48,572 nt of DNA from an uncultured Planctomycetia bacterium. GTDB taxonomy: Bacteria > Omnitrophota > Gorgyraeia > Gorgyraeales > Gorgyraeaceae. A model generated the notes under the pieces. The model did no database searches, was not told the origin of the DNA, and saw nothing but the letters and a program-made list of their open reading frames with translations. The position numbers and the translations under genes are program-made. The DNA lies in the NCBI GenBank assembly GCA_964415355.1, contig CAYPYS010000001.1, positions 95,161 through 143,732 of the forward strand. The letters run 5' to 3'. Numbering within the stretch: the first letter of the stretch is position 1; each line of letters begins with the position of its first letter. This document shows, in pieces, positions 295 to 47,610 of this stretch.

Positions 295-331
295 TAACTT
301 TACATTTCAACAATGTTAAAATGTAAACTTA
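295..331 (+). repeat. Palindromic intergenic repeat R1 (orientation A)
   Basis: TAACTTTACATTTCAACAATGTTAAAATGTAAACTTA. The last 3 nt are the stop codon of the 329-1012 gene. Confidence 0.95.
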
Positions 332-2322: not shown

Positions 2323-2359
2323 TAACTTTACATTTCAACAATGTTAAAGTGTAAAGTTA
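2323..2359 (+). repeat. Palindromic intergenic repeat R2 (A)
   Basis: TAACTTTACATTTCAACAATGTTAAAGTGTAAAGTTA. The arsM stop is 8 nt away. Confidence 0.95.
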
Positions 2360-3201: not shown

Positions 3202-3238
3202 TAACTTTACACTTTAACGTTGTTGAAGTGTAAAGTTA
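3202..3238 (-). repeat. Palindromic intergenic repeat R3 (orientation B, the reverse complement of A)
   Basis: TAACTTTACACTTTAACGTTGTTGAAGTGTAAAGTTA. Contains the stop of the PIN-PhoH gene. Confidence 0.95.
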
Positions 3239-4559: not shown

Positions 4560-4596
4560 TAACTTTACATTTCAACAACGTTAAAGTGTAAAGTTA
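4560..4596 (+). repeat. Palindromic intergenic repeat R4 (A, consensus copy)
   Basis: TAACTTTACATTTCAACAACGTTAAAGTGTAAAGTTA. Contains the pfkA stop. Confidence 0.95.
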
Positions 4597-6171: not shown

Positions 6172-6561
6172 TTAATAATTTTTCTTGCTGTCAATAAGCA
6201 CGCCGTTTTTATAGAGGTCGATCTTGTATTCACGCAAGGAACCGTATCTTTTTTTCATGGTGTCTGAGATCGCTATCTGCGTCTTGTGCCAACCCTTCTC
6301 AACGTTATTAAGGGAACTGCTGGCAAATGTAAACTCTCCTCTGTCAAACTTACAATGGACCTTAAAAAGAAGATTATCAGTCCATTTATCGCGCGTCTGA
6401 TAGTTTATAAGAATAACGTACCCGCCCATTCTATGGATCTTCATGGCGCCTTTTATGGCCACTGAATCTGCAAATGAATTTTGTAGGGGGAATGACAGGA
6501 CAGAGATCAGCGTTGCAAAAATTATTAAAAATTTCGCGATTTTCACTCGTGGCAAGCACAT
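6172..6561 (-). CDS. Small secreted protein of unknown family (paralog B)
   Basis: The track ORF starts at 6597. I prefer the ATG at 6561 (MCLPRVKIAKFLIIFATLISVLS...) because AGGAAGGA lies 7 nt upstream, whereas the 6597 ATG abuts a U7 tract. Roughly half the residues are identical to paralog A, by eye. Confidence 0.65.
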   Translation of the reverse strand: MCLPRVKIAKFLIIFATLISVLSFPLQNSFADSVAIKGAMKIHRMGGYVILINYQTRDKWTDNLLFKVHCKFDRGEFTFASSSLNNVEKGWHKTQIAISDTMKKRYGSLREYKIDLYKNGVLIDSKKNY

Positions 6562-6604
6562 ACTTTCATCCTTCCTAATATGCCCTAAAATGAGCATAAA
6601 AAAA

Positions 6605-6718
6605 TCGAAGGAATGGGTACGCGGTCTTTCGGCAACCCAGCCGCCTTACCCTAACTGGCTTAGGCCTGTGGCTTTGCGTCCCAATCTTTCGATCAGTTTG
6701 CCTTTTCGGTTTTACCCG
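6605..6718 (-). promoter_or_regulatory. c-di-GMP-I (GEMM-I) riboswitch upstream of secreted-protein paralog B
   Basis: Minus-strand RNA: GGGUAAAACCGAAAAGGCAAACUGAUCGAAAGAUUGGGACGCAAAGCCACAGGCCUAAGCCAGUUAGGGUAAGGCGGCUGGGUUGCCGAAAGACCGCGUACCC. It contains the GEMM-I hallmarks as I remember them from the V. cholerae Vc2 aptamer: GGCAAAC, a GAAA-capped hairpin, GGGACGCAAAGCC, the CCUAAG...UAAGG tetraloop-receptor halves, and GGGUUGCC closing P1. A U7 tract (6598-6604) and an anti-SD-like UCCUUC follow. Confidence 0.85.
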
Positions 6719-7598: not shown

Positions 7599-7635
7599 TA
7601 AGTTTACACTTTAACATTGTTGAAATGTATACTTA
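7599..7635 (-). repeat. Palindromic intergenic repeat R5 (B, variant)
   Basis: TAAGTTTACACTTTAACATTGTTGAAATGTATACTTA. Exact reverse complement of R18. Contains the stop of the PilZ gene. Confidence 0.95.
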
Positions 7636-9690: not shown

Positions 9691-9727
9691 TAACTTTACA
9701 TTTCAACAACGTTAAAATGTAAAGTTA
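9691..9727 (+). repeat. Palindromic intergenic repeat R6 (A), between divergent promoters
   Basis: TAACTTTACATTTCAACAACGTTAAAATGTAAAGTTA. Confidence 0.95.
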
Positions 9728-10180: not shown

Positions 10181-10627
10181 ATGAAAACCATTAAAGCCAT
10201 TACCTTAATCGAATTAATGATCGCGCTGGCCATATTCTCGATAATCCTCGGAGCTATCTATAGCGTATTGAATATGGGTCGGGCATCTTATTATACTGGC
10301 GATATCCAGATAGCAGTACAGCAAGAAGCGCGCAAGGCAATGGATAAGATGACCCGGGAAATACGGGAAGCCAGCTCTGTCAATCTCAGCGATGATTATC
10401 CTTTTGCAGTCGAGGCAAACCGCATAAAATACGAAGTCAATAGCGGACAGCTACAGAGAATTGTTCAGGGAGGATCGACCACTGTCTTGGCAAACGATGT
10501 TGGAAATGTTCAGTTTACTCTGATAGGCGGAGATATGGTGTATATAACATTAACAACGCAAAAAAATACTGTGCTCGGAAGAAGCTTGAGCGCTGATTTG
10601 ACCTCTCAAGTCAACCTGAGAAATTAA
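10181..10627 (+). CDS. Minor pseudopilin (PilW/GspJ-like)
   Basis: N-terminal AITLIELMIALAIFSII prepilin-like segment with E+5. Only a 3-nt gap to the upstream gene. Confidence 0.7.
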   Translation: MKTIKAITLIELMIALAIFSIILGAIYSVLNMGRASYYTGDIQIAVQQEARKAMDKMTREIREASSVNLSDDYPFAVEANRIKYEVNSGQLQRIVQGGSTTVLANDVGNVQFTLIGGDMVYITLTTQKNTVLGRSLSADLTSQVNLRN

Positions 10628-10631
10628 AACC

Positions 10632-11924
10632 ATGTTAAAGAACAAAAAAGGCATAGCCCTGATAACTGCATATATAGTCATCGCTGTCCTGACAGCGCTT
10701 GGAGCCGCGTTTATCTCCCGCAGCATAAGCGAGATGAGGGTTGCTGAACGGGCAAAAAATTCTACCCAGGCCTTCTATATTGCAGAGGCCGGCATAGACT
10801 ATGCTATTGAAGAAATGCGCAATGGCAATACGTCAGATCAGAATACTGCCACATTGAACGACAGCAACGCCACTCCCATAGGTTATTATAATGTAAACTG
10901 GCAAAGGATAGGGTCGTCTTCCACGTGGGAAATTATATCTGACGGCTTTGTAGGCGATACCCAAAGAAAGGTCACCGTGGAAGCGCTGCCAGATACATTT
11001 GCCAGATATCTGTATTTTACAGACGACGAACACTTCCGCTGGTGGTGGTGGAGAGTACCGGTATGGTTCGTAACAGGCGATAATCTGGGCGGCCCACTGC
11101 AGACAAATTCGCATTTTCATATATCTGGAGACCCTGCTTTCAGCGACCCTGACTATCATAGACCTGTTAAAAGCGTAGATGACTTCATTACATATATGAA
11201 TGGCGGATCGCCCATAAATAGCACAGCCACTTCTAATTCACCAAACGACAATCCTACATTCGAAGAGGGCCTTCAATTAGACTCAGACAGGGCCCCTTTT
11301 CCAAGCAGGGCACTCGACTTAGAAAACGCTGCTTCTCAACCAGAAGGACTTGCTCTGACTGGAGCAACGACAATAGTCCTAAACTCTGACGGAACAATGA
11401 ATGTTACTAACAACGACCGAGGGTGGTCGAATGAAAACATGTCATTGCCAGACAATGGCGCAATGTTTGTAGATAATGGCGATGTAACTATCTCAGGCAC
11501 TCTGAACGGCCAGCTCAGCATAGGGACAAGCGAAAATATAGTCGTATCTGACAATGTGACTTATAACACAGATCCTAGAGTCAATCCGACCTCCACGGAT
11601 ACCTTAGGCCTCATAGCTGAAAGAGATGTAGTGATAAGCCAGAGCGCCCCTCACGATATAGAGATCGATGCCAGCGTAATGGCGCTGGGCGAATCATTTA
11701 CAGTTGAAAACTATTGGCAGGGCCCGCCGAAAGGCACTATCAGCGTATATGGCGGGATCATTCAAGACGAACGCGGTCCCGTAGGTACCTTTAACCCCAG
11801 CACTAACAGCAAAGCCAGCGGCTACAGCAAAGATTATCAATACGATCCAAGATTGATGGCAAGTCCGCCTCCATTCTATCCTACTACAGGGGATTATGTT
11901 ATCAGCTCTTGGTCAGAGGAATAA
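10632..11924 (+). CDS. PilX-N-domain-like minor pilin/pilus tip protein
   Basis: N-terminal KKGIALITAYIVIAVLTALGAAFISRS...AFYIAEAGIDYAIEEM resembles the PilX N-terminal domain and lacks E+5. Large Asn/Ser/Thr-rich globular part. Confidence 0.55.
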   Translation: MLKNKKGIALITAYIVIAVLTALGAAFISRSISEMRVAERAKNSTQAFYIAEAGIDYAIEEMRNGNTSDQNTATLNDSNATPIGYYNVNWQRIGSSSTWEIISDGFVGDTQRKVTVEALPDTFARYLYFTDDEHFRWWWWRVPVWFVTGDNLGGPLQTNSHFHISGDPAFSDPDYHRPVKSVDDFITYMNGGSPINSTATSNSPNDNPTFEEGLQLDSDRAPFPSRALDLENAASQPEGLALTGATTIVLNSDGTMNVTNNDRGWSNENMSLPDNGAMFVDNGDVTISGTLNGQLSIGTSENIVVSDNVTYNTDPRVNPTSTDTLGLIAERDVVISQSAPHDIEIDASVMALGESFTVENYWQGPPKGTISVYGGIIQDERGPVGTFNPSTNSKASGYSKDYQYDPRLMASPPPFYPTTGDYVISSWSEE

Positions 11925-11927
11925 ACT

Positions 11928-12353
11928 ATGTCCAAAGAAAATAAAAAAATCTCTAAATTAAATATCGCTATCGGGCTCGGACTGATATTATTCGTGGTTA
12001 TACTGGTTATAAGCATAAAGGATAACAGTAAAAAATCCGATTCGCCAAAGACAAAAGAAGCAATAACAATGCAGCAGATAATCAAGCCAATGGTTAAAAA
12101 GATCGAAGAGCCTTTCCTTTTTGAAGATAAAAAAACTTCATCAAAAGAAGAGATTACCGAGAAAGTCGAAGACGAAGAACTCCCGGCAGTATCGGTAAAA
12201 GACCTCCCGTTGGACGAAATCACGGACAAAACAGAGCAAGGCAGAGAAAAATCGCCTGAAGAGATCGAAGCTCCTGCTACCCCATCCCTTCAAACACAAC
12301 CCAGCCTTGAAGACATGAAACTGATCAAGAAAAAAGGGTTTGTAATTTACTGA
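11928..12353 (+). CDS. Membrane-anchored acidic/lysine-rich hypothetical protein
   Basis: Single N-terminal TM (LNIAIGLGLILFVVILVISI) followed by a low-complexity E/K/P-rich tail. Last gene of the pseudopilin operon. Confidence 0.55.
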   Translation: MSKENKKISKLNIAIGLGLILFVVILVISIKDNSKKSDSPKTKEAITMQQIIKPMVKKIEEPFLFEDKKTSSKEEITEKVEDEELPAVSVKDLPLDEITDKTEQGREKSPEEIEAPATPSLQTQPSLEDMKLIKKKGFVIY

Positions 12354-12414: not shown

Positions 12415-12450
12415 TAACTTTACATTTCAACAATGTTAAAAGTATACTTA
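12415..12450 (+). repeat. Palindromic intergenic repeat R7 (A, 36 nt, degenerate right arm), in the marR 5' UTR
   Basis: TAACTTTACATTTCAACAATGTTAAAAGTATACTTA. Confidence 0.9.
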
Positions 12451-14496: not shown

Positions 14497-17400
14497 ATGA
14501 GTTTACCGCGATTCAGTGTCAATCAATCCATGTTCGTGAATTTGTGCTCGGTCATCATTATTATAATAGGGCTGATAGTGGTCCTGGGCATGAACAGGGA
14601 GATATTTCCCAATGTTGACTTCGAAATAGTGAGCGTCACCACCGCTTACCCCGGAGCCACTCCTCTTGACATCGAAAAACTCATCACTGTGCCTATTGAA
14701 AAGGAACTCAAGGAAGTCGACGGCCTCAAGGAAATAAAATCCTCTTCTGCCGCTGGTGTTTCTCTTTTAACAATAAAGATAGACCCTGACGAACATGACA
14801 AGAAAAAGGTCGTGAACGATATCAAAAGCGCCGTGGACAGGGTCAAAGACCTCCCTAAGGACATAACAGAAGACCCTGTTGTGACAGAGGTAACCAGCAA
14901 ACAATATCCGATAATCGAGGTATCTCTTTCTGGTAACATGTCCGAGAAAAAACTGCAAAGCTACGCCGATGCGCTCGAAGATACATTGGAAGACATAGCC
15001 GGCGTCGCAAAGGTAGATAAATCCGGATACCGTGACAGGGAAATACAGGTGCGCGTTGACCCTGAGAAGATGCATGATAGATATGTTTCGTTCGATGAGA
15101 TCGAGCAGGCTCTTGCCTCGCGCAATATAAGCATCCCGGCGGGCGAAATAAATACAGAGACCACAGAATATAACATAAGGACCACGGGTGAATTCTCAAC
15201 CGCCCAAGAGGTCGAGAATATAATAATCAGGGCCAATGACTCTGGCAACTGGCTCAGGATCAAAAATGTGGCAGAGGTAAAAGACTCCTTTAAAAAAGAA
15301 GACATAATCTATAAAACCCTCGGCACCCGTTCTATAAATCTCATAGTGATGAAAAAACAATCCGGCGATGCCATAAGCATTGTGGATGAGATCAAAGAAG
15401 TATGCGGCGCGTTCCAGAAACGCTCTTCCGACAAACTCGAGATATCGTACGTGAATGACTATTCATTCTTTGCGAGACGCAGGCTTAATGTATTAAAAAA
15501 CAATGGCTGGGCTAGTTTAATATTAATAACAATATCCATGCTCCTCTTTTTGCATTCCCGCGTAGCATTCGTGACGATCCTGGGGATACCCATCGCGTTC
15601 TTTGCGACATTTATGGTAATGAGTGCAATGGGCATCACTATAAATCTTATCAGCATGTTCGGCCTCATCATAGTGCTGGGGATGCTTGTGGACGACGGGA
15701 TCATTGTAGCTGAAAACGTGTACCGGTATATGGAACAAGGCATGCGTCCAAGGGAAGCTGCTGTAAAGGGCGCCGAAGAAGTCATGAGAGCTGTGACAAC
15801 GGCTGTGTTTACGACCATTGCCGCCTTCTCCCCTCTTTTATTTATGACCGGGATCATAGGAAAATTCATAAGAGACATCCCGACAGTACTGATCGTGGCG
15901 CTTCTCGCCTCTCTGGGCGAAGCCCTCATAATATTACCAAGTCACCTTGCTGACTTTGTAAAGATAAAATACGATGCGGCCGGAAAGCCCGTCAATATCT
16001 CGAAAGACATACCATGGTTTAAAAAACTTGTCAGATTCTATACAAAGATGGTCTCGTCTGCCATAAAAAGAAAATATAAAGTAGTGGCAGGCTTTACCCT
16101 TGCCCTTATCCTGTGTGCATTTTTTGCCTTTGGTGTAATAAAATTCATACTATTTCCAAGCGCTGGCATTAATTACTTTTTCATACGAGGCGAGGCAGCC
16201 ATAGGAACGCCTCTCCAGAAAACTAACGAGCTTATACTGCCTATTGAAGAGATAGTGGCTGAACTTCCGTCGCAAGAAATGGATTCATTCGTAACTTCCG
16301 TAGGAAGCATTCAAGAAGACCGCCATGACCCTTTTGCAGGGCAGGCAAGTCACTTAGTACAAACAACCGTCTACCTCACGCCGGAACAGGACAGGAAAAG
16401 AAGCGTGGAAAAAATCATAGAGGAGGTCAGAAAAAAAATAAAAGATGCGCATGGTTTTGCAGAGCTCAGATTTGACAAGCCTGAGACAGGCCCGCCTGTT
16501 GGAAAGGCTGTAGAGGCCAGGATCAGAGGCGAGGATTTTGAGACATTAGATGTAATCGCAAAAGAATATATGGATTATCTGAATACCGTAGAGGGCACGA
16601 TAGATGTAACATGGGACCATAAACCAGGCAAAGAAGAAATACGCATTAAAGTAGATAATGACAAAGCTACGCTGGCAGGCCTTAGCGTAGCGCAGATAGC
16701 AAAGACTGTGCGCGCGGTCTTTGAAGGAAATATCGCGACCAAGATAAAGCCTGTAAAGGCAGAGGAAGAAACCGACGTTACGATAATGTTCCCGGAAAAG
16801 GCATCAAAAGATATGACTGTCTTTAAAAACATACTTGTACGAAATTCTTACGGGAATCTGATACCTCTTGAAAAAGTAGCATCCATAGAAAAGGTGCCGG
16901 GCACCACGACCATACACCATCTTGACGGGAAACGCGTAGTGACTGCATCTGCCAACGTGGATACAGACAAGATAACATCGCTTAAGGCCAACAAAATGCT
17001 TGAGAAAAAATTCAAAGACATATCTGAACGCTATATGGGATACTCGGTAAAATACGGAGGCGAACAGGAAGAAACCGTTGATTCATTGATGAGCCTGTTA
17101 AAGGCCTTCTTCTATGCGTTTCTTATTATATACCTGATCCTATCCTCTGCCTTCAAATCCATCGTACAGCCTTTGATAATAATGCTCGCGATACCGTTCG
17201 GCCTCATTGGCGTGGTGTTTGCATTTCTCACGCACGGCATGCCCCTGTCGTTCATGGCCATTCTGGGCATAGTCGGCTTAAACGGTATCGTCGTCAATGA
17301 TTCGATCGTGCTTGTTGATTTTATAAATAAATTGCGCAGAGAAGGGATGTCTAGACCTGAATCAATAATAAAAGCCGGCCAGATGAGAATAAGGCCTGTT

Positions 17401-17610
17401 GTTCTGACTACTATAACTACTGTAGGAGGCTTATCAACTGTCGCCTATGGCATAGGCGGGAAAGACCCTTTCCTGGTGCCTATGGCCCTTTCGATCTGCT
17501 GGGGATTGATCTTCGCGACCGCGCTCACGCTAGTAGTCATCCCGTGTATATATTCTATCGTGGACGACCTCACAATGAAAATAACAAAACACTCCACCGT
17601 CAAAGTCTAA
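14497..17610 (+). CDS. RND family efflux transporter permease (AcrB/AcrD/AcrF type)
   Basis: 1037 aa with 12-TM RND topology and conserved VDDGIIVAEN and NGIVVNDSIVLVDF segments. TAA stop forms the first 3 nt of repeat R8. Confidence 0.9.
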   Translation: MSLPRFSVNQSMFVNLCSVIIIIIGLIVVLGMNREIFPNVDFEIVSVTTAYPGATPLDIEKLITVPIEKELKEVDGLKEIKSSSAAGVSLLTIKIDPDEHDKKKVVNDIKSAVDRVKDLPKDITEDPVVTEVTSKQYPIIEVSLSGNMSEKKLQSYADALEDTLEDIAGVAKVDKSGYRDREIQVRVDPEKMHDRYVSFDEIEQALASRNISIPAGEINTETTEYNIRTTGEFSTAQEVENIIIRANDSGNWLRIKNVAEVKDSFKKEDIIYKTLGTRSINLIVMKKQSGDAISIVDEIKEVCGAFQKRSSDKLEISYVNDYSFFARRRLNVLKNNGWASLILITISMLLFLHSRVAFVTILGIPIAFFATFMVMSAMGITINLISMFGLIIVLGMLVDDGIIVAENVYRYMEQGMRPREAAVKGAEEVMRAVTTAVFTTIAAFSPLLFMTGIIGKFIRDIPTVLIVALLASLGEALIILPSHLADFVKIKYDAAGKPVNISKDIPWFKKLVRFYTKMVSSAIKRKYKVVAGFTLALILCAFFAFGVIKFILFPSAGINYFFIRGEAAIGTPLQKTNELILPIEEIVAELPSQEMDSFVTSVGSIQEDRHDPFAGQASHLVQTTVYLTPEQDRKRSVEKIIEEVRKKIKDAHGFAELRFDKPETGPPVGKAVEARIRGEDFETLDVIAKEYMDYLNTVEGTIDVTWDHKPGKEEIRIKVDNDKATLAGLSVAQIAKTVRAVFEGNIATKIKPVKAEEETDVTIMFPEKASKDMTVFKNILVRNSYGNLIPLEKVASIEKVPGTTTIHHLDGKRVVTASANVDTDKITSLKANKMLEKKFKDISERYMGYSVKYGGEQEETVDSLMSLLKAFFYAFLIIYLILSSAFKSIVQPLIIMLAIPFGLIGVVFAFLTHGMPLSFMAILGIVGLNGIVVNDSIVLVDFINKLRREGMSRPESIIKAGQMRIRPVVLTTITTVGGLSTVAYGIGGKDPFLVPMALSICWGLIFATALTLVVIPCIYSIVDDLTMKITKHSTVKV

Positions 17611-17644
17611 CTTTACATTTCAACAACGTTAAAATGTAAACTTA
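17608..17644 (+). repeat. Palindromic intergenic repeat R8 (A), between convergent genes
   Basis: TAACTTTACATTTCAACAACGTTAAAATGTAAACTTA. The first 3 nt are the TAA stop of the plus-strand RND gene. Confidence 0.95.
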
Positions 17645-18116: not shown

Positions 18117-18153
18117 TAACTTTACATTTCAACAACGTTAAAATGTAAAGTTA
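18117..18153 (+). repeat. Palindromic intergenic repeat R9 (A), between divergent promoters
   Basis: TAACTTTACATTTCAACAACGTTAAAATGTAAAGTTA, with flanks CCC/GGG extending the stem. Confidence 0.95.
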
Positions 18154-19917: not shown

Positions 19918-19954
19918 TAACTTTACATTTCAACAACGTTAAAGTGTAAAGTTA
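19918..19954 (+). repeat. Palindromic intergenic repeat R10 (A)
   Basis: Identical to R4. The pilD stop is 15 nt away. Confidence 0.95.
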
Positions 19955-20755: not shown

Positions 20756-20792
20756 TAACTTTACACTTTAACGTTGTTGAAGTGTAAAGTTA
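20756..20792 (-). repeat. Palindromic intergenic repeat R11 (B)
   Basis: TAACTTTACACTTTAACGTTGTTGAAGTGTAAAGTTA. aroE reads into it ([10 protein letters not shown]). Confidence 0.95.
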
Positions 20793-21665: not shown

Positions 21666-21700
21666 TAAGTTTACTTTTAACATTGTTGAAAGTAAACTTA
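21666..21700 (-). repeat. Palindromic intergenic repeat R12 (B, 35-nt variant with paired 1-nt deletions)
   Basis: TAAGTTTACTTTTAACATTGTTGAAAGTAAACTTA. Both arms are shortened by 1 nt and the stem is preserved. Contains the leuA stop. Confidence 0.9.
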
Positions 21701-23245
21701 GAGGTCGAGTTCTTTCTGCTTAGGCTTTGTTTTTCGCGATCGCGCGAAAAAGAGCCTGTTGGTTGCATTCACGTATGCCTTTGCGCTGGCCTCGATTATA
21801 TCAGTGGAGGCCCCTCTCCCTGAAACTTCTTTGCCCTTGCCAGGTTTTATCCTGACAGTGACCTCGCCCAAGGCGTCCTTACCCCTCGTTATAGACTTTA
21901 AAGAATAATCCAGGAGCGTACACTTGAGGCCTGTTATTTTGTCAATAGCCTTGTAGCAGGCATCCACAGGCCCATCACCGGTGGAAGATTTTTTCAGCAT
22001 CTTCGCGCCTTTTTTCAACGCTACTGCAGCGCGCGGGATGACCTTGCTTCCGCTTACTATATTAAGGTCTTCCAACCTATATGTTTCCGGTATAGAAATA
22101 ATTTCGTCCTCGACTATAGTCAAAAGATCCTCGTCAAATATCTCCTTCTTTTTATCAGCGAGGCTCTTGAAGCGCTCAAATGCCTTCAAAAGATCCTTCT
22201 GGTTAAGCTCGAATCCCAGCTTCTTAAGCCTCTCGGAAAACGCGTGTTTACCTGAATGTTTTCCGAGCACAAGCCGCGTCTCTCCGAAGCCCACGTCCTC
22301 TGGTTTCATAATCTCGTAGGTAGTGCGCTTCTTCAATATGCCGTCTTGATGCACGCCTGCTTCGTGGCTGAATGCGTTGCGGCCCACTATCGCCTTGTTC
22401 GGCTGCACCACAATGCCTGTGAGCTTGCTCACCAGGCGGCTCGCCTTATAGAGTTCCTCTGTATTTATCGACGTGGAAGCCTCAAAGATATCCTTGCGCG
22501 TATCCAGCGCCATCACGATCTCTTCCAGGGACGCATTACCTGCCCTCTCGCCAATGCCGTTGACAGTACATTCGACCTGCTCAGCGCCGTTCTCAATGGC
22601 TGCGAGGGAATTACTCACGCCAAGTCCAAGGTCATTGTGGCAATGCACACTAAGTATAGCCTTGCTTGAATTAGGGACTTTGTTTTTTATTGTATTTATT
22701 AGTGAACCAAATTCAATAGGGATCGCGTAACCTACTGTGTCAGGGATGTTCACTGTTTTCGCGCCTGCGGATATCACTGCTTCGACCACGCGGCACAGAA
22801 AATCCTTTTCAGAGCGCGAGGCATCCTCTGGCGAAAACTCGACATCATCACAAAACTTGCGTGCATATTCCACAGCCCACACAGCCTGCCGCAATATCTC
22901 ACTCTCTGCCTTTTTCAGTTTATACTGCATGTGGATTTTAGATGTTGCCAAAAACACATGGATGCGCGGCTTCTTTGCCTTTTTGACAGCGCGGGCGCAC
23001 GTCTCTATATCCTGCTTTGTAGCCCTTGCAAGACCACAAACGCTCGGTCCCTTGACCTCAGAAGCGACTTTACTGACTGCGTTGAAATCACCCTTCGAGG
23101 CAATGGGAAAACCCGCCTCGATCACGTCAACGCCTAGCCTTGCCAGCTGTTTCGCAATGTCAATCTTTGCCTTTATGTCGAGGCTCGCGCCAGGTGACTG
23201 TTCGCCATCTCTCAGAGTTGTATCGAAAATAATAATTCTTTTCAT
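21698..23245 (-). CDS. leuA: 2-isopropylmalate synthase (LeuA/CimA family)
   Basis: [16 protein letters not shown] and HCHNDLGL motifs. Start moved to the ATG at 23245 ([15 protein letters not shown] upstream) because the track's MLKCKVKDV extension is translated repeat R13. Stop codon lies in R12. Confidence 0.85.
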
Positions 23246-23253
23246 AACATCCT

Positions 23254-23290
23254 TAACTTTACATTTCAACAACGTTAAAGTGTAAAGTTA
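23254..23290 (+). repeat. Palindromic intergenic repeat R13 (A)
   Basis: Identical to R4. Contains the ilvC stop. The leuA ATG is 8 nt from the other end. Confidence 0.95.
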
Positions 23291-24315: not shown

Positions 24316-24352
24316 TAACTTTACACTTTAACGTTGTTGAAATGTAAAGTTA
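24316..24352 (-). repeat. Palindromic intergenic repeat R14 (B)
   Basis: TAACTTTACACTTTAACGTTGTTGAAATGTAAAGTTA, the exact reverse complement of R4. Confidence 0.95.
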
Positions 24353-24856: not shown

Positions 24857-24893
24857 TAAGTTTACATTTTAACGTTGTTAAAGTGTAAACTTA
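24857..24893. repeat. Palindromic intergenic repeat R15 (chimeric arms), in tandem with R16
   Basis: TAAGTTTACATTTTAACGTTGTTAAAGTGTAAACTTA. B-type loop with an A-type right arm, giving a nearly perfect hairpin. Confidence 0.9.
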
Positions 24894-24899
24894 CGCGCC

Positions 24900-24936
24900 T
24901 AACTTTACATTTCAACAATGTTAAAATGTAAAGTTA
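24900..24936 (+). repeat. Palindromic intergenic repeat R16 (A)
   Basis: TAACTTTACATTTCAACAATGTTAAAATGTAAAGTTA. Contains the ilvB stop. 6 nt from R15. Confidence 0.95.
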
Positions 24937-26628: not shown

Positions 26629-26665
26629 TAACTTTACATTTCAACAACGTTAAAGTGTAAAGTTA
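26629..26665 (+). repeat. Palindromic intergenic repeat R17 (A)
   Basis: Identical to R4. The ilvD stop is 16 nt away. Confidence 0.95.
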
Positions 26666-28380: not shown

Positions 28381-28409
28381 ATTATCGCATTTTCCGCAAA
28401 AAATTGCAA
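28381..28409 (-). promoter_or_regulatory. sigma70-type promoter (extended -10) of the ilvD-ilvB-ilvN-ilvC-leuA string
   Basis: TTGCAA-N17 (ending TGc)-GATAAT. An approximately 40-nt leader with AGGAG precedes the ilvD ATG. Confidence 0.65.
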
Positions 28410-28437: not shown

Positions 28438-28474
28438 TAAGTATACATTTCAACAATGTTAAAGTGTAAACTTA
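28438..28474 (+). repeat. Palindromic intergenic repeat R18 (A, variant)
   Basis: TAAGTATACATTTCAACAATGTTAAAGTGTAAACTTA. Exact reverse complement of R5. The greA stop is 4 nt away. Confidence 0.95.
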
Positions 28475-30094: not shown

Positions 30095-30131
30095 TAACTT
30101 TACATTTCAACAACGTTAAAATGTAAAGTTA
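30095..30131 (+). repeat. Palindromic intergenic repeat R19 (A)
   Basis: TAACTTTACATTTCAACAACGTTAAAATGTAAAGTTA. Contains the tsaB stop. Confidence 0.95.
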
Positions 30132-30815
30132 AGGTTTTGACTTTGTCTTCACCTGGCAATATCTCGAATATATATATAAAGGTTTAAGCTTGCCCAGGTC
30201 TTGCTTTCTGCGCATTTTTATATTTTTAAGGGCTAATTTTATAAGACAGCTTGCCTTTGGATACCAATATTTCTCGTCTAAAAAAATCGCTTTTCGACCC
30301 AACCGGCGTATCTCTTCTTTATAAAGAGTTACGCCATCGCCTAAAAATACCGCAGGGCCTTTTATCTTTTTCATAAGTGCCTCTACGGTTAACAAAAGGT
30401 AACCTGATGTCTTGGAAATTGTGCCATTTTTTCTCTTGTATATCGCAGAATACACCTGGTTTCTCTTTGCATCGATCACCGGCACTACAGTCGCCTTTTC
30501 GACATCGGCATTCATTGCCAGTGCGTCAATACTGGCCACGCCAATACACGGCTTCTTTGTGGCAATGCCAAATCCTTTCACAGAACTCACGCCGATGCGC
30601 AAGCCTGTAAACGAACCCGGTCCTAACCCTACGACGAACGCGCCAATATCATTGATCCGCGAATTGCATTTCTCTAAAAGCTCCTTGACCTTAGGCACCA
30701 GCAAGGCCGAATGCTGCCTGTCAAGCAGGTGAGATTCTTCCGCGATGATAAAATTATCCTCACCCAACGCCATGTTTAAAAATTTCGAACTTGTATCAAT
30801 CGCCAGGATCTTCAT
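30129..30815 (-). CDS. tsaB: tRNA t6A37 biosynthesis protein TsaB
   Basis: MKILAIDTSS...GLGPGSFTGLRIG. Stop codon lies in R19. Confidence 0.8.
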   Translation of the reverse strand: MKILAIDTSSKFLNMALGEDNFIIAEESHLLDRQHSALLVPKVKELLEKCNSRINDIGAFVVGLGPGSFTGLRIGVSSVKGFGIATKKPCIGVASIDALAMNADVEKATVVPVIDAKRNQVYSAIYKRKNGTISKTSGYLLLTVEALMKKIKGPAVFLGDGVTLYKEEIRRLGRKAIFLDEKYWYPKASCLIKLALKNIKMRRKQDLGKLKPLYIYSRYCQVKTKSKP

Positions 30816-30824
30816 ATCTCACGC

Positions 30825-30861
30825 TAACTTTACATTTCAACAACGTTAAAGTGTAAAGTTA
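30825..30861 (+). repeat. Palindromic intergenic repeat R20 (A)
   Basis: Identical to R4. Contains the tsaE stop. The tsaB ATG is 9 nt from the other end. Confidence 0.95.
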
Positions 30862-31266
30862 GGAAATAGTTATCTTTCTTTTACATTCGCCTTTAACCTT
30901 GATCTTTACAATTATGCAATTTTCGGGCAATATCTCTTTTATCTTCTCTGCCCATTCTATCACAGTAACACCGTCGCCATAAATATATTCTTTCACTCCG
31001 ATATTCTCTATGTCCTGCAGCCTGTCGAGTCTATATAAATCCAGATGATACATCGGCATCCTGCCGTTATATTCTTTTATCAGAACAAAAGTAGGGCTAT
31101 TTATATGGCGCGAGTCCTTCACTCCGAGCCCCCTGCCTATACCTTTGGTAAATGTAGTCTTGCCGCTTCCAAGGTCTCCGCAAAGAGCGATAACGTCTCC
31201 AGCCGAAAGTTTCTTAGCCAGCCTTGCCCCCAATTCTATCGTATCCTTAGCGCTTTTACTTATCAT
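30859..31266 (-). CDS. tsaE: tRNA t6A37 biosynthesis ATPase TsaE
   Basis: LCGDLGSGKTTFTKGI...SPTF...YHLDLYRL. Stop codon lies in R20. Confidence 0.85.
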   Translation of the reverse strand: MISKSAKDTIELGARLAKKLSAGDVIALCGDLGSGKTTFTKGIGRGLGVKDSRHINSPTFVLIKEYNGRMPMYHLDLYRLDRLQDIENIGVKEYIYGDGVTVIEWAEKIKEILPENCIIVKIKVKGECKRKITIS

Positions 31267-31275
31267 AATTCCGCC

Positions 31276-31312
31276 TAACTTTACACTTTAACGTTGTTGA
31301 AACGTAAAGTTA
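31276..31312 (-). repeat. Palindromic intergenic repeat R21 (B, variant)
   Basis: TAACTTTACACTTTAACGTTGTTGAAACGTAAAGTTA. Contains the thiL stop. Confidence 0.95.
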
Positions 31313-33222: not shown

Positions 33223-33259
33223 TAACTTTACATTTCAACAACGTTAAAGTGTAAAGTTA
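33223..33259 (+). repeat. Palindromic intergenic repeat R22 (A)
   Basis: Identical to R4. Contains the stop of the DUF362 gene. Confidence 0.95.
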
Positions 33260-34366
33260 CAGCCCAAGACCCCTTGCCAATATATTCCGCCTGAGCTTGA
33301 CTGCATCATACGGACACACCTCATTACAGCACATGCACTTGATGCATTTAACCGCATCGATAACTGATGTCTCTTTATTTATTGTAATAGCGGACACCGG
33401 GCATGTATCTCGGCAAATATTGCATTTTTTGCAAAGCCCTTCGTCTATATAAGGCCCGAACTTCACAAGACTCGCCACCGCCCTTATAAGAAAACCGGGT
33501 AATTTAAAAATAAGCCTTGAATGAGGGAGCCTGAAATTCTTTATCAAATTATCCTTTAGCGTCTCACCTAAAATATCTATTTTTTTTATATCTGCCTCGC
33601 CAAGCCCCCTTTTCGCAGCTTCTTTTGTAGACAGGATCTTAAAAGGGTCCATACCGATCAGATGCGAAAATATAACATCTAGCGCCACGCTATCTGCGCT
33701 CGCCATCAAAAGCCCCGCCGGATTTAATGTCCCTGCTGCTGGCCCGTCTCCGTCCATTGCAATCACGCCATCCATCAGGGCAAGTTGCGGCTTCACGGCA
33801 TCGAAGACATCGACCAGGACATTGCAAAATTCCTCTTCCCTGGGAAATCTCTTGTGGCATTCGGATTTATTTAAGCCTGACACCGCGCCAAACATATTTT
33901 TTACAGCTCCTGTCAATATCATCAGGTTATGAGTTTTCATCTTCGGCAAAGATATGATCTTATCACACTCAAAAAAATAAGAAGCTATCGGCAAGCCCTT
34001 GATCATCTTTACATTTTTCGTCTCCAAAAGCTCGACGCCTTCTTCTTTCGCGATCCGCGCCATGCCTGAAGACTCATATATCTCCCGGACCTGGACCCCC
34101 CTGCACCCTCCCGGAGTATCCCCTATCAAAGGATATGCGCCGCATTCCCTTACTAGTTTCACGACAGCTCTAACGACCTCCACGTGAGTATTGGCTCCTT
34201 TTTCCGGACCGCTGCCTGAAAGCATATTAGGCTTAATAAGCACCTTCTCGCCTTTATTTACAAACGCGGATATGCCGCCTAAAAGATCAAAGGCCTGACG
34301 CACGCACGACCCCAGGATCTCCTGGCTATATGTCTTACATTTTACAATCGAAACTCTTGCACTCAC
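33257..34366 (-). CDS. DUF362 domain protein with C-terminal 2x[4Fe-4S] ferredoxin domain
   Basis: VLIKPNM core of DUF362 plus CKKCNICRDTCP and CIKCMCCNEVCP clusters. Start set to the GTG at 34366 (AGGAGG 9 nt upstream) because the track's MLKCKV extension is translated repeat R23. Stop codon lies in R22. Confidence 0.75.
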   Translation of the reverse strand: MSARVSIVKCKTYSQEILGSCVRQAFDLLGGISAFVNKGEKVLIKPNMLSGSGPEKGANTHVEVVRAVVKLVRECGAYPLIGDTPGGCRGVQVREIYESSGMARIAKEEGVELLETKNVKMIKGLPIASYFFECDKIISLPKMKTHNLMILTGAVKNMFGAVSGLNKSECHKRFPREEEFCNVLVDVFDAVKPQLALMDGVIAMDGDGPAAGTLNPAGLLMASADSVALDVIFSHLIGMDPFKILSTKEAAKRGLGEADIKKIDILGETLKDNLIKNFRLPHSRLIFKLPGFLIRAVASLVKFGPYIDEGLCKKCNICRDTCPVSAITINKETSVIDAVKCIKCMCCNEVCPYDAVKLRRNILARGLGL

Positions 34367-34380
34367 TTTATCAATCCTCC

Positions 34381-34417
34381 TAACTTTACATTTCAACAAC
34401 GTTAAAGTGTAAAGTTA
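34381..34417 (+). repeat. Palindromic intergenic repeat R23 (A)
   Basis: Identical to R4. Contains the stop of the CPBP gene. Confidence 0.95.
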
Positions 34418-35455
34418 AGCCATTAGTTCTTTTATAAAGAACACGAAGCCGACGATAATCGCATTATGCAGGATGTGCACTGCCATCGAAGCGACAAGCG
34501 ACCCTGTCCTCTCATAAAGGTAAACCAAAAGCAAACCCAGTATCATGATCGGGAAAAAACCGACAATATTCGTATGCAGGAGACTAAAAACTGACGCGCT
34601 TATAAACGCAGCCCCTATCACACCAATATGTTTTTTAACGGCATTGTACATAAACCCTCGAAAAAATATCTCCTCAATAATAGGCCCCAGGATGGAAACG
34701 AATATCGCAAAGAACGCAAGAAATACGCCTCTCTTTTCTTCCATGAACATTTCAAATACAGGCTGAGGCTCGGGCTTATAGCCCAAGATATTCAAAATCC
34801 ATAAAGAAAAAATCAAGACCGTGAATAAAAGCGGCAGAATAAAAATATACCCCGCTATGCCTGATGAAATATTTTTAAATAAAGAAGATAATTTCAAGCC
34901 TAGCGAAACCAGTGTATCCTTGCATTTAACCACTACAAAATACAACACCACTATAACCACGGCAATATCTATAAAAAAAGTGCTGATCATCATGCGCAAA
35001 TTGATCCCGATATCTAATTGCAATAATTCATATATAATGCTTTCTGCAAGGCCTAAGACATAACTCATGAAAACAATAACAAGGCTCGCCCTTAAAAGGT
35101 CGGGAACGCCCCAGGAAATATCCTCTCTCCCTCGAGAAGACGACAAGGATGAAAAAGAAAAAGCAAAAGGCCTTATCCTGAAAATAAAAGCTAAATTCAT
35201 CACAATGGAAAACATAAATACTAAAAATCCCAAGATTATCGCGTATTTAAAAAACCTTGCACTTAGCTTGCCTGAGGACAAAAAATCCTTGACCCTCTCT
35301 TCGGTAACTCCGATCTCCTCAAGGGTCATCTCTGAAAAGGATTTTTCTGACTTTACCTGCTTTTTTTCCGACTGCCCTGCGCTCATAAAATTCACAGCCA
35401 GTATAAAGAGCAGCATGAATATGTATATTTTTTCTCGTCTTATAAAATCCAGCAT
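34415..35455 (-). CDS. CPBP family intramembrane glutamic endopeptidase (CAAX protease-like)
   Basis: EEIFFRG, FSLLH and HILHN motifs in a polytopic membrane protein. Stop codon lies in R23. Confidence 0.75.
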   Translation of the reverse strand: MLDFIRREKIYIFMLLFILAVNFMSAGQSEKKQVKSEKSFSEMTLEEIGVTEERVKDFLSSGKLSARFFKYAIILGFLVFMFSIVMNLAFIFRIRPFAFSFSSLSSSRGREDISWGVPDLLRASLVIVFMSYVLGLAESIIYELLQLDIGINLRMMISTFFIDIAVVIVVLYFVVVKCKDTLVSLGLKLSSLFKNISSGIAGYIFILPLLFTVLIFSLWILNILGYKPEPQPVFEMFMEEKRGVFLAFFAIFVSILGPIIEEIFFRGFMYNAVKKHIGVIGAAFISASVFSLLHTNIVGFFPIMILGLLLVYLYERTGSLVASMAVHILHNAIIVGFVFFIKELMA

Positions 35456-35470
35456 GGTAATGCCCTCTCG

Positions 35471-35507
35471 TAACTTTACACTTTAACGTTGTTGAAATGT
35501 AAAGTTA
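35471..35507 (-). repeat. Palindromic intergenic repeat R24 (B)
   Basis: Identical to R14. tatD reads into it (NFTFQQR*). Confidence 0.95.
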
Positions 35508-37428: not shown

Positions 37429-37465
37429 TAACTTTACATTTCAACAACGTTAAAGTGTAAAGTTA
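37429..37465 (+). repeat. Palindromic intergenic repeat R25 (A)
   Basis: Identical to R4. Contains the metG stop. Confidence 0.95.
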
Positions 37466-38992
37466 GAGCTCTATTCTGGGGAACAAAGGTTTGCCTTTGC
37501 TGGTTTTTACCCCTGATTTTGCCATGCCCCAGGACAAATCCTTTAAAGTTTTCTTCTCTGCTTTTAAACCAAGCTGCTGCGTCATTTTTTCGGAAGTCGT
37601 CGGTAAAAATGACCACAGGGCCGCTGATATAATCCTGAGAATTTCGTAAAGGTCATACATCATATCCCTGAGCTCATCCTCTTTGTTTTCTTTTGAAAGC
37701 CTCCATGGCGCTTTCTGCTCTATAAATTTATTGGCCATATTTATCAATACCCAGATAGCGCCGAGCGCCTGGCTAAAATCTATATTGTCCATTGCCGCTG
37801 AGATCTCGGATTTTAAATTCTTCGCTTTGTCAATGAGCGAAGCTGTGAGCTCGTCCGCGTTTTTAATATCTCGCCTCCTGGGAACTTTCCCGGAAAAATA
37901 TTTCTCTATCATGGACAATGTCCTGTGCAAAAGATTTCCCAGGTCATTAGCGAGATCACTATTGATCCTGGATATAAGCGCAGATTCGGAAAACGAACCA
38001 TCTGCGCCAAACGGCACTTCTCTCAACAGGAAAAACCTGTATGCGTCCACGCCGAACTTATCGACCATCTCAAGCGGATTGACTATATTGCCCCTGGACT
38101 TGGACATCTTGTCTTCGCCGATCTTCCACCAGCCATGAGCAAACACTGTCTTGGGCTGCTCGAGCCCAATAGCGTGAAGCATGATGGGCCAATAAACAGT
38201 GTGCGGCCTCAATATATCCTTTCCTATCATGTGCACGTCAGCCGGCCAGAATTTTTTGAATTTCTTAGAGTCATCGCCGTAGCCGCACAGGCTGATATAA
38301 TTTATGAGCGCGTCAAACCAGACATAGGTCACATGATCTTCGCTAAAAGGTATCTTAATGCCCCACGAAAGCCTGGACTGGGGCCTTGAGATACACAAGT
38401 CGTTCAACGGATTCTTAAGAAAACTCAGGATCTCGTTCTTTCTTATAATCGGTAATATAAAATCCTCGTGCGAATTAATGTAATCCACGAGCCAATTTTG
38501 ATATTTCGAAAGCCTGAAAAAGAAATTCTTTTCTTTTATGTGTTCGACCTTCCTCTTGCAGTCAGGACAATTGTCGTCTACAAGCTGGGCCTTGGTCCAA
38601 AAACTCTCACACGGCGTGCAATACCATCCGCTATATTCACCCTCATACAGATCACCCTTCTTGTACAGGATCTCCAGTATTTTTTTCACGACATCCTCAT
38701 GCCTCTTCTCTGTCGTGCGGATAAAATCATCATATGAGATGTTCAGCTTCTCCCATAGATTTTTAAATCTCGGAACCACTGCATCAACGAACGCAGCCGG
38801 CTCCATGCCCTTTTCGCTAGCTGCCTCTTTTATCTTCTGGCCATGCTCGTCAGTACCTGTAGAAAACAATACCTCTGCGCCCGAAAACCGATTAAATCTA
38901 GCGAGCGCGTCGCACGCGATATTGGTATACGAATGCCCGATATGCGGATTACCATTAACATAGTATAGAGGTGTCGTAATATAAAATTTCAT
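37463..38992 (-). CDS. metG: Methionine--tRNA ligase
   Basis: HIGH-type motif (PHIGHSYT), KMSKS and a zinc knuckle CPDC. Stop codon lies in R25. Confidence 0.9.
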   Translation of the reverse strand: MKFYITTPLYYVNGNPHIGHSYTNIACDALARFNRFSGAEVLFSTGTDEHGQKIKEAASEKGMEPAAFVDAVVPRFKNLWEKLNISYDDFIRTTEKRHEDVVKKILEILYKKGDLYEGEYSGWYCTPCESFWTKAQLVDDNCPDCKRKVEHIKEKNFFFRLSKYQNWLVDYINSHEDFILPIIRKNEILSFLKNPLNDLCISRPQSRLSWGIKIPFSEDHVTYVWFDALINYISLCGYGDDSKKFKKFWPADVHMIGKDILRPHTVYWPIMLHAIGLEQPKTVFAHGWWKIGEDKMSKSRGNIVNPLEMVDKFGVDAYRFFLLREVPFGADGSFSESALISRINSDLANDLGNLLHRTLSMIEKYFSGKVPRRRDIKNADELTASLIDKAKNLKSEISAAMDNIDFSQALGAIWVLINMANKFIEQKAPWRLSKENKEDELRDMMYDLYEILRIISAALWSFLPTTSEKMTQQLGLKAEKKTLKDLSWGMAKSGVKTSKGKPLFPRIEL

Positions 38993-39015: not shown

Positions 39016-39052
39016 TAACTTTACACTTTAACGTTGTTGAAATGTAAAGTTA
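39016..39052 (-). repeat. Palindromic intergenic repeat R26 (B)
   Basis: Identical to R14. Contains the stop of the PSP1 gene. Confidence 0.95.
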
Positions 39053-40840: not shown

Positions 40841-40877
40841 TAAGTTTACATTTCAACAACGTTAAAGTGTAAAGTTA
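40841..40877 (+). repeat. Palindromic intergenic repeat R27 (A, TAAG left end)
   Basis: TAAGTTTACATTTCAACAACGTTAAAGTGTAAAGTTA. Contains the tmk stop. Confidence 0.95.
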
Positions 40878-41505: not shown

Positions 41506-41542
41506 TAACTTTACATTTTAACGTTGTTGAAATGTAAAGTTA
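41506..41542 (-). repeat. Palindromic intergenic repeat R28 (B-like, symmetrised left arm)
   Basis: TAACTTTACATTTTAACGTTGTTGAAATGTAAAGTTA. Contains the cysS stop. Confidence 0.95.
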
Positions 41543-43455: not shown

Positions 43456-43492
43456 TAACTTTACATTTCAACAACGTTAAAGTGTAAAGTTA
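43456..43492 (+). repeat. Palindromic intergenic repeat R29 (A)
   Basis: Identical to R4. Contains the ispD stop. Confidence 0.95.
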
Positions 43493-44186: not shown

Positions 44187-44223
44187 TAAGTTTACACTTT
44201 AACATTGTTGAAATGTAAAGTTA
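44187..44223 (-). repeat. Palindromic intergenic repeat R30 (B, variant)
   Basis: TAAGTTTACACTTTAACATTGTTGAAATGTAAAGTTA. Contains the stop of the PIN/TRAM gene. Confidence 0.95.
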
Positions 44224-45241: not shown

Positions 45242-45273
45242 TAAGTCCCCCTTATATCATTATTGTAAAGTTA
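45242..45273. repeat. Degenerate remnant of the palindromic repeat (R31)
   Basis: TAAGTcccccttatatcattatTGTAAAGTTA. Only the outer 5 nt of one arm and 10 nt of the other are recognisable. Still provides the mlaD stop codon. Confidence 0.6.
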
Positions 45274-47553: not shown

Positions 47554-47573
47554 ACTAGCACCATGGTTTCTCC

Positions 47574-47610
47574 TAACTTTACACTTTAACGTTGTTGAAA
47601 TGTAAAGTTA
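47574..47610 (-). repeat. Palindromic intergenic repeat R32 (B)
   Basis: Identical to R14. The upstream gene's stop is 20 nt away, with a small GGCC..GGCC hairpin in between. Confidence 0.95.

Follow-up and report, generated by a model that had tools for sequence, protein, structure and literature searches.

Among the short palindromes found between bacterial genes, the repetitive extragenic palindromic (REP) sequences and REPINs of E. coli, Pseudomonas and Stenotrophomonas (the SMAG elements), which are mobilised by REP-associated tyrosine transposases (RAYTs), come close to the element that is the subject of this report: a 37-nt palindrome that recurs at gene junctions along 48,572 nt of the genome of an uncultured Planctomycetia bacterium (contig CAYPYS010000001.1, positions 95,161 to 143,732; henceforth the window). 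Like our repeat, REPs and REPINs are imperfect palindromes of 20-40 nt that lie outside genes in hundreds of copies, often in operons just after stop codons and with a hairpin in the transcript; each genome has its own consensus, and copies are found singly, as dimers or in decayed form. The termini of GTAG-tagged REPs are reported often to supply the TAG stop codon of flanking open reading frames (ORFs; Di Nocera et al., PMC3733652). With a second group, the TA-duplicating miniature inverted-repeat transposable elements (MITEs) such as Neisseria Correia/NEMIS and derivatives of the IS630/Tc1 type, the repeat shares conserved termini around a varying interior, Y-TA-R flanks, insertion into operons and co-transcription. 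Mycobacterial interspersed repetitive units (MIRUs), finally, are mobile repeats between operon cistrons, placed so that the expression of flanking genes is preserved (PMC12548453); the idea of a standard insert between cistrons has its precedent in them.

An initial annotation of the window had read the repeat junctions as a standardised arrangement, with the stop codon in the hairpin and the next start codon 8-16 nt behind it, that could enforce translational coupling or set the relative expression of neighbouring cistrons. Here we argue that the repeat is quite probably a lineage-specific, high-copy mobile element of the REP/MITE kind, which inserts at, or is tolerated only at, the stop side of tight gene junctions, and that the uniform junction is the footprint it leaves. 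Effects on coupling, or on mRNA stability or processing, would be secondary.

A 37-nt palindrome at gene boundaries

Searching the window with the arms of the palindrome yields 31 full copies, about one per 1.6 kb, and one half copy. All 31 lie at gene boundaries; we number them as the initial annotation did (its R1-R31). The palindrome is laid out as TAACTTTACA-N17-TGTAAAGTTA, each copy with TAA at its start and TTA at its end, and together with the flanking bases the consensus ends read (C)TAACTTTACA...TGTAAAGTTA(G), the flanks fitting Y-TA-R. There are two mirror forms, which differ only in the 3-nt loop (AAC or GTT) and at two inner stem positions. Read directly, the repeat offers a stop codon in all three frames of either orientation, at offsets 0, +13/+22 and +29. 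Its stem comprises 17 pairs, which flanking C and G can extend to 18-19; the outer 10 bp are perfectly paired and AU-rich, and the RNA hairpins are predicted to fold with free energies of -7 to -17 kcal/mol.

Pairing in the stem is maintained, with double-sided changes in 38 cells compared to 16.7±2.9 in shuffles. In a palindrome, such paired changes fit a constraint on RNA or on DNA alike and cannot separate the two. No sense-strand bias for G.U over C.A is seen at the two inner positions, where both are equally common (29 to 24 and 10 to 14), and only three single-sided transitions fall elsewhere in the stem, which leaves that comparison without power.

Repeats are found in 26 of the 44 co-directional junctions of the window (59%); one junction holds a tandem pair (#15/#16) and one a half copy only. 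Two divergent gaps (#6, #9) and a convergent one (#8) also hold copies, and the orientation of the loop relative to transcription is random (11 to 9). Most of the junctions listed below belong to a single string of 30 minus-strand genes that runs from 48536 down to 18780, much as the initial annotation had claimed (a co-directional string of 30 kb). In order of transcription it reads hypothetical, mlaE, mlaF, mlaD, PIN-like, ispD, ispF, cysS, tmk, holB, ricT, metG, nifS, tatD, CPBP protease, DUF362-ferredoxin, mtnA, thiL, tsaE, tsaB, alr, greA, ilvD, ilvB, ilvN, ilvC, leuA, aroE, pilD-like and aroC. Coordinates are those of the window, and distances to starts are counted from the end of the repeat.

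295..331, repeat #1: stop of the upstream VTT-domain gene is the first TAA; 17 nt to a TTG; the downstream ORF leaves the window
2323..2359, repeat #2: stop 8 nt upstream; start 13 nt after
3202..3238, repeat #3: stop within the repeat; start 36 nt after
4560..4596, repeat #4: pfk stop within the repeat; start 31 nt after
7599..7635, repeat #5: variant with arms TAAGTATAC/GTAAACTTA; stop within the repeat
9691..9727, repeat #6: divergent intergenic gap, no upstream cistron
12415..12450, repeat #7: degenerate, 36 nt; upstream of the plus-strand gene marR
17608..17644, repeat #8: convergent gap; acrB stop TAA at 17608-17610; the gene converging on it ends 10 nt from the opposite arm
18117..18153, repeat #9: divergent gap; plus-strand start 11 nt away
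19918..19954, repeat #10: pilD to aroC; stop 15 nt upstream; start 16 nt after
20756..20792, repeat #11: aroE to pilD; aroE runs in and stops at the TAA of the 3' arm; start 12 nt after
21666..21700, repeat #12: 35-nt variant; leuA to aroE; stop within the repeat
23254..23290, repeat #13: ilvC to leuA; stop within the repeat; leuA ATG at 23245, 8 nt after (GTTA-AGGA-TGTT-ATG)
24316..24352, repeat #14: ilvN to ilvC; stop 14 nt upstream; start 38 nt after; flank CCCCACCACCT in common with locus L055 of a relative
24857..24893, repeat #15: ilvB to ilvN, second of the tandem pair; start 16 nt after
24900..24936, repeat #16: ilvB to ilvN, first of the tandem pair; ilvB stop within the repeat
26629..26665, repeat #17: ilvD to ilvB; stop 16 nt upstream; start 24 nt after
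28438..28474, repeat #18: after greA, upstream of the ilvD promoter
30095..30131, repeat #19: tsaB to alr; stop within the repeat; start 15 nt after
30825..30861, repeat #20: tsaE to tsaB; tsaE stop TAA at 30859-30861, the first 3 nt (minus strand); tsaB ATG at 30815, 9 nt past the distal arm; -12.4 kcal/mol
31276..31312, repeat #21: thiL to tsaE; thiL stop TAA at 31310-31312; tsaE ATG at 31266, 9 nt past the arm; -7.3 kcal/mol
33223..33259, repeat #22: DUF362 to mtnA; stop within the repeat; start 16 nt after
34381..34417, repeat #23: CPBP to DUF362; stop within the repeat, then GGAGG; GTG start 14 nt after; site empty in three relatives
35471..35507, repeat #24: tatD to CPBP; tatD runs in and stops at an internal TAA; start 15 nt after
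37429..37465, repeat #25: metG to nifS; stop within the repeat; start 15 nt after
39016..39052, repeat #26: ricT to metG; stop within the repeat; start 23 nt after
40841..40877, repeat #27: tmk to holB; stop within the repeat; start 10 nt after
41506..41542, repeat #28: cysS to tmk; stop within the repeat; GTG start 13 nt after; no Shine-Dalgarno sequence (SD)
43456..43492, repeat #29: ispD to ispF; stop within the repeat; start 12 or 30 nt after
44187..44223, repeat #30: PIN-like gene to ispD; stop within the repeat; start 16 nt after; no SD
47574..47610, repeat #31: hypothetical gene hyp301 to mlaE; stop 20 nt upstream; start 20 nt after; site empty in the JACKQG01 relative
45264..45273, minus strand, half copy (5' arm only, TAACTTTACA): mlaD to PIN-like gene; its TAA is the mlaD stop
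30859..31266, minus strand, tsaE ORF: 135 aa (TIGR00150, E=3.8e-39), with a repeat on both sides

The half copy between mlaD and the PIN-like gene is a decayed or deleted element. Positions 30816-31275 contain the tsaE ORF together with the 9-nt gap before tsaB (30816-30824) and the 9-nt gap beside the repeat at 31276-31312.

Stop codon, gap and Shine-Dalgarno sequence

On the transcribed strand, both junctions that flank tsaE read: last sense codon, TAA-CTTTACA...TGTAAAG-TTA, 9 nt, ATG. In 19 curated copies the upstream gene terminates at the leading TAA of the repeat, and an automatic count puts the figure at 20 of 30. This arrangement is far from chance: among 23 ORFs terminated by a repeat, 20 end in the frame of the first TAA (p=1.6e-7 against equal frames), and finding 20 of 30 stops at one given offset has p~2e-25 against a chance of 1/40. 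Reading of tatD and aroE continues into the repeat and ends at an internal TAA; seven genes have their stop 4-61 nt upstream of it.

On the other side, 15-16 junctions place the next start codon 8-16 nt beyond the repeat. Junction by junction, we reproduce the gaps listed in the initial annotation: 8 nt (#13), 9 (#20, #21), 10 (#27), 12 (#11), 13 (#2, #28), 14 (#23, with its GTG), 15 (#19, #24, #25) and 16 (#10, #15, #22, #30). Fifteen of the 16 junctions that it had placed at 16 nt or less are thus recovered, and #1 is doubtful, given 17 nt to a TTG and an ORF that leaves the window. Its statement that the SD abuts or overlaps the 3' arm also holds up, in that the best SD-antiSD duplex takes in 1-4 nt of the arm in 9 of 16 short junctions. 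Almost no SD is found at three junctions (#20 tsaB, #28 tmk, #30 ispD). Co-directional gaps with a repeat cluster at 42-50 nt, from which subtraction of 34-37 nt leaves 5-16 nt, as much as an SD spacer normally takes; among the 18 gaps that lack a repeat, 12 are overlaps or at most 17 nt long.

Two further observations concern starts near repeats. Between #31 and mlaE lies a mini-ORF of four codons (ATG GTG CTA GTA TGA; 47554-47573, minus strand), preceded by GGAG and with a stop that overlaps the mlaE ATG, which could be a relay for reinitiation. Start calls, moreover, are affected in four ORFs (21698-23272, 33257-34399, 34415-35455 and 37463-38992). A list of longest ORFs starts leuA and the DUF362 gene at a TTG inside the repeat, and Joint Genome Institute (JGI) gene calls cut CPBP to 217 aa and metG to 468 aa, compared to 340-356 aa and 509-512 aa in relatives, and include a 139-aa antisense ORF that is probably spurious.

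Empty and filled sites in related genomes

Scanning one genome per species, we found the arms to be numerous in two metagenome-assembled genomes (MAGs) filed as 'uncultured Planctomycetia', CAYULJ01 and CAZTIQ01, and present singly in MAGs of 'Candidatus Omnitrophota'. A metagenome scan added a third close relative, JACKQG01, at ~85% nucleotide identity. Syntenic loci were then obtained via TsaB homologues (L055 from CAYULJ01, with 85% TsaB identity, and L056 and L057 at ~65%), and the genome scan supplied the CAZTIQ01 locus, L010, at ~68% nucleotide identity. The stop-start geometry recurs in the CAYULJ01 and CAZTIQ01 MAGs and in the JACKQG01 metagenome; the stop is the first TAA in 17 of 40, 10 of 23 and 11 copies in the three other genomes. 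Within the strain itself, the identical TsaE protein is encoded on 19 contigs, and no difference in repeat presence or absence exists among 10 same-strain contigs that are 99.97-100% identical to the window. Since the strain has been assembled independently many times without repeat differences, the repeats are not an assembly artefact.

Gene order is conserved in the relatives from tmk through holB, ricT, metG, nifS, tatD, CPBP, DUF362, mtnA, thiL, tsaE, tsaB, alr, greA, ilvDBNC, leuA, aroE and pilD to aroC. In L056, L057 and L010, however, most junctions in this order overlap (tsaE/tsaB by 20 nt, nifS/tatD by 7, several ATGA overlaps of 4, ilvB/ilvN by 1) or leave 1-23 nt between genes. Because the same genes overlap or abut there in the same order, the repeats were inserted secondarily, into a string whose genes already lay close together. 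The string that the repeat colonised was ancestrally tight and probably polycistronic, and the deep conservation of gene order, along with the overlapping ORFs of the relatives, argues for long transcripts.

The clearest before-and-after comparison is provided by the junction between CPBP and DUF362. The site is empty in L065 (~85% nucleotide identity), where it reads ATGGGTTAA|GGTAAGAATATG, and consists of an ATGA overlap in L055 and L010; in the window it reads ATGGCTTAA[34 nt: CTTTAC...AAAGTTA]GGAGGATTGATAAAGTG, and both the SD and the GTG start are new there. Between hyp301 and mlaE, L064 has an empty site. Removal of the element from the tmk to holB junction of the window leaves TAGGGACTGATAATG, close to the TAGGACTATG of L056. 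At the thiL to tsaE junction of L056, whose TsaB is 67% identical, a 52-nt gap (9548-9601) opens with TAACTTTAG and includes ...CTCAAGTTGG. This gap may be a decayed copy of the repeat, in which case occupation of the junction is perhaps old.

Variation within the family

Copies are nearly identical within a genome, and between genomes they differ in concert: arms that read TAAC...GTTA in the window are mostly TAAG...CTTA at the same junctions of L055. The copy between ilvN and ilvC, which is not at a stop, shows the same difference, and its flank CCCCACCACCT, common to the window and L055, marks it as positionally orthologous. Loop orientation is flipped between the window and L055 at metG to nifS. 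At other shared junctions, ilvC to leuA and DUF362 to mtnA, the copies sit at differing offsets from the stop, which points to turnover.

Interiors vary more than termini. In the CAZTIQ01 MAG, the same 11-nt arms enclose unrelated interiors; its repeat between tsaB and alr, for example, shares its arms with #19 and has another interior. In all, at least three different interiors are found within the arms TAACTTTACAC, TAAGTTTAC or the shorter TAAGTT, among them those of ~100-nt elements in L055. Two of the L055 junctions, at ~11100-11280 (greA to ilvD) and ~14672-14775 (ilvB to ilvN), hold a larger palindrome of about 80-100 nt with arms AAAAATAGGGACAGACACCTATTTTT, nested between TAAGTT(TAC) and (GTA)AACTTA, where the window has a plain copy or the tandem pair; this looks like nested insertion, or like long and short forms of one family.

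Other palindromes occur in the same loci. Near-perfect ones with 25-nt and 20-nt arms lie inside the coding regions of mtnA and tsaB in L010 (4215-4270 and 1970-2016) and recall in-frame palindromic insertions such as the Rickettsia palindromic elements (RPEs); a copy of the first is nested in an element of the 37-nt family in L004 (684-773). L057 has a related family, CAACTTGACACTTGTGACATTGTTACAAGTGTCAAGTTG, at four junctions (CPBP to DUF362, greA to surA, thiL to tsaE, ilvD to ilvB), with its TAA serving as the upstream stop at two of them, as well as an unrelated, GC-richer palindrome (TTCTCGACTCGC...GCGAAGTCGAGAA). Across the clade, several palindrome families thus occupy gene junctions, at lower density.

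Insertion as a probable explanation for the uniform junction

How might a mobile repeat come to sit so regularly on stop codons? Insertions fall directly on the upstream stop or only a few nt away, and the 8-16 nt up to the next start are the pre-existing SD plus spacer, or were rebuilt later. The element would regenerate the TAA, and it would target a site that contains TA or TAA (Y-TA-R), or else survive only there, because elsewhere in a junction of 0-16 nt it would break a frame or part the SD from the start codon that it serves. In the transcript, the AU-rich hairpin would loop out the inserted 37 nt, making the insertion nearly neutral for expression, and continued copying or gene conversion would keep the copies of a genome uniform. 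The downstream distance never drops under 8 nt, given that an SD placed inside the upstream gene is no longer an option. As for a target-site duplication, TA fits the Y-TA...TA-R flanks, but the cleanest pair of empty and filled sites differs by 34 nt, not 35, and the palindromic ends make its limits ambiguous.

Several observations weigh against a mobile repeat. First, RAYT, transposase and integrase genes are absent from the 49 ORFs of the window, and no transposase-sized ORF lies between paired arms in ~0.5 Mb of related DNA. Second, at the clean empty site one A too few is present for a duplication of TA. Third, with no polymorphism among the 10 contigs of the strain, mobility is deduced from differences between species only. 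Moreover, copies are near-perfect and have been kept at most orthologous junctions of a species at 84% identity, which could also reflect selection by a sequence-specific host factor, and the three junctions with almost no SD hint that the arrangement may matter for reinitiation.

A rival reading takes the junction to be an adaptive, standardised device in which the terminating ribosome melts the 5' arm and so frees the SD, or in which the refolding hairpin joins stop and SD; in either case, translation downstream would be coupled to that upstream or set relative to it. In favour of this reading, the geometry is uniform and replicated in four genomes, SD nucleotides lie in the 3' arm at 9 of 16 short junctions, the three SD-less junctions follow genes that are overlap-coupled in relatives, and remodelling after insertion always leaves at least 8 nt with an SD. 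A ribosome on a stop codon at the base of the 5' arm would necessarily hold that arm unpaired, judging by the known footprint and helicase activity of ribosomes. In partition-function folds, the probability that the region from -13 to -4 is unpaired is only 0.22 where gaps measure up to 10 nt (0.44 for 12-16 nt), in line with a partly occluded SD as the initial annotation had supposed; masking the 5' arm, however, raises these values only modestly, to 0.34 and 0.53, so that opening the hairpin is predicted to be a weak SD switch. The repeats are, furthermore, secondary insertions at junctions that were already coupled, they are also present where there is no upstream cistron, and they lie in either orientation. 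In published screens, coupling tends to be weaker where structure follows immediately on the upstream stop, and added stop-to-start distance of less than 20 nt can reduce it (2025 review of translational coupling, PMC12548453). The geometry of the proposed coupling device therefore holds, but its function, enforcing coupling or setting expression, is unsupported by our computations in view of the insertion origin, the divergent and convergent sites, the random orientation and the weak switch, and runs partly counter to the published coupling data and the comparative evidence of insertion; we consider such a device unlikely. Translational coupling as such may occur at repeat junctions, and those of tsaB (#20), tmk (#28) and ispD (#30) may depend on it.

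Alternatively, the hairpins might govern the fate of the mRNA, as barriers to 3'-exonucleases or as RNase III/E-type endonuclease sites at which the long polycistronic transcript is cut into segments of differing stability. E. coli REPs, Neisseria Correia elements and the intercistronic sites of phage T7 offer models, and for REP and Correia elements a role of this kind is known (summarised in PMC3733652). A stem of 17 pairs (18-19 with flanks) at -7 to -17 kcal/mol follows directly on the stop at most junctions, and its pairing is conserved, with compensatory changes. Yet no signal is specific to RNA, G.U and C.A being without sense-strand bias, and the AU-rich stems are weak beside those of E. 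coli REPs. This reading, too, strikes us as rather improbable.

A more speculative proposal takes its cue from viruses. In the ribosome shunt of cauliflower mosaic virus (CaMV) and in the bypass of phage T4 gene 60, a stable stem has a stop codon at its 5' foot, and translation starts again shortly beyond its 3' foot, a few nt further on. The two sites are about 45-50 nt apart in the sequence, and the hairpin makes them neighbours in space. By analogy, the repeat might loop out its own 37 nt, so that the terminating ribosome (or a 30S subunit) adjoins the SD at the 3' base and reinitiates, a shunt-like module spread across a bacterial genome and perhaps served by a co-evolving host factor. If true, this would account for the very uniform sequence of the copies and for the junctions without an SD, and it would be the hairpin that allows an operon of tightly coupled genes to withstand saturation by insertions. 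We regard it as a long shot.

Transcription signals and neighbouring features

That the repeat is a signal for transcription, either a weak bidirectional promoter (TTTACA-N19-TAAAGT on both strands) giving one transcript per gene or an intrinsic terminator, is very improbable. In the consensus, TTTACA is similar to a -35 hexamer and TAAAGT shares A2 and T6 with the -10 hexamer, but transcription starting ~7 nt past such a -10 element would set out inside or beyond the SD. Our consensus scan flags no repeat as promoter-like and none as a terminator on the sense strand; the stems are AU-rich, no U-tract follows them, and their 3' flanks are rich in G and A. A single bona fide promoter stands out, of canonical form and with 17 nt between its hexamers:

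28409..28381, minus strand, promoter-like TTGCAA-17-(TG)GATAAT: upstream of ilvD, not part of a repeat, interrupting the string

This site is kept in two relatives (L055 and L057). It was described in the initial annotation as the only strong internal promoter of the string; a canonical site is indeed there, but its sole status is unprovable when promoter-like matches do not exceed those in shuffles (43 compared to 34±5.7).

Elsewhere in the window, a c-di-GMP-I riboswitch aptamer (RF01051, 81.6 bits, E=1.3e-14; 6628-6712, minus strand) lies ahead of a hypothetical gene of 141 aa (6172..6597), in a gap of 139 nt that is among the few long ones to lack a repeat. On the plus strand, a small cluster of type IV pilin-like genes (10181-12353; N_methyl motif, PilX_N) has junctions of 3-4 nt and no repeats. 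It adjoins the MarR/OEP/AcrB efflux unit, and repeat density is visibly lower in this plus-strand block.

What the repeats offer

A small palindrome here fills 26 of 44 co-directional junctions of a conserved housekeeping string and leaves the genes unbroken, because it supplies stop codons in all frames and does not crowd out the ribosome-binding site that follows. In species that are ~85% identical, empty and filled sites together form a natural before-and-after series, in which overlapping, translationally coupled genes become hairpin-spaced ones and SD and start are rebuilt. The repeats also offer a test bed for the debated question of whether structure between a stop and the next start helps or hinders coupling. 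There is also a warning for the annotation of MAGs of the Planctomycetes-Verrucomicrobia-Chlamydiae (PVC)/Omnitrophota type, in which longest-ORF or automatic calls misplace starts or put them inside the repeat. In short, an uncultured lineage provides a clean natural experiment on the remodelling of operon junctions, within a known class of element.

Comparison with known systems

Can the repeat be assigned to a described family? Integron attC sites, with the gene string as a cassette array, can be dismissed: the termini superficially resemble attC cores (RYYYAAC...GTTRRRY, as in the GCCTAAC...GTTAGGC of the copy at 24900) and each of the co-directional genes is followed by a palindrome, but both cores are found in only 1 of 31 copies, 37 nt is too short (57-141 nt in attC), the window encodes no integrase, and the conserved order of these housekeeping genes, kept in relatives down to about 65% protein identity, effectively refutes the idea. 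Nor is the repeat a MIRU, which is oriented, tandem and equipped with a small ORF that overlaps the start and stop of its neighbours (-4 coupling); our repeat is a hairpin with stops in all frames of both orientations, no internal ORF, and orientations of 11 to 9. In an Rfam search of the window no family matches the repeats at its gathering score, the riboswitch being the sole match, and a limited literature search on palindromic and intergenic repeats turned up no mention of Omnitrophota among the papers listed, which is not proof of novelty.

With 31 copies of 37 nt in 48.5 kb, the element is a short, high-copy extragenic palindrome in the sense of a REP. It differs from REPs and REPINs in ending in TAAC...GTTA, neither end of the consensus carrying a GTAG or CGTC tag, in the perfect, AU-rich pairing of its outer 10 bp, in its density of ~1 per 1.6 kb, in providing a TAA stop with its first three bases in about two thirds of copies, and in having no RAYT in the window. 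Terminal inverted repeats shared around differing interiors bring it close to MITEs, from which it is set apart by its length (37 nt, essentially two fused arms), by the 34-nt gain at the clean empty site and by the absence of an autonomous partner from the DNA searched. The CaMV shunt and T4 gene 60 are functional analogies only, being single, specialised viral cases with extra signals; it is by analogy alone that the same ribosome would continue here. The repeat thus works like a REP or a minimal MITE and belongs to no named family. What is unusual about it is a matter of degree: its density, at ~1 per 1.6 kb and 59% of co-directional junctions, and the precision with which the stop codon coincides with its first three bases.

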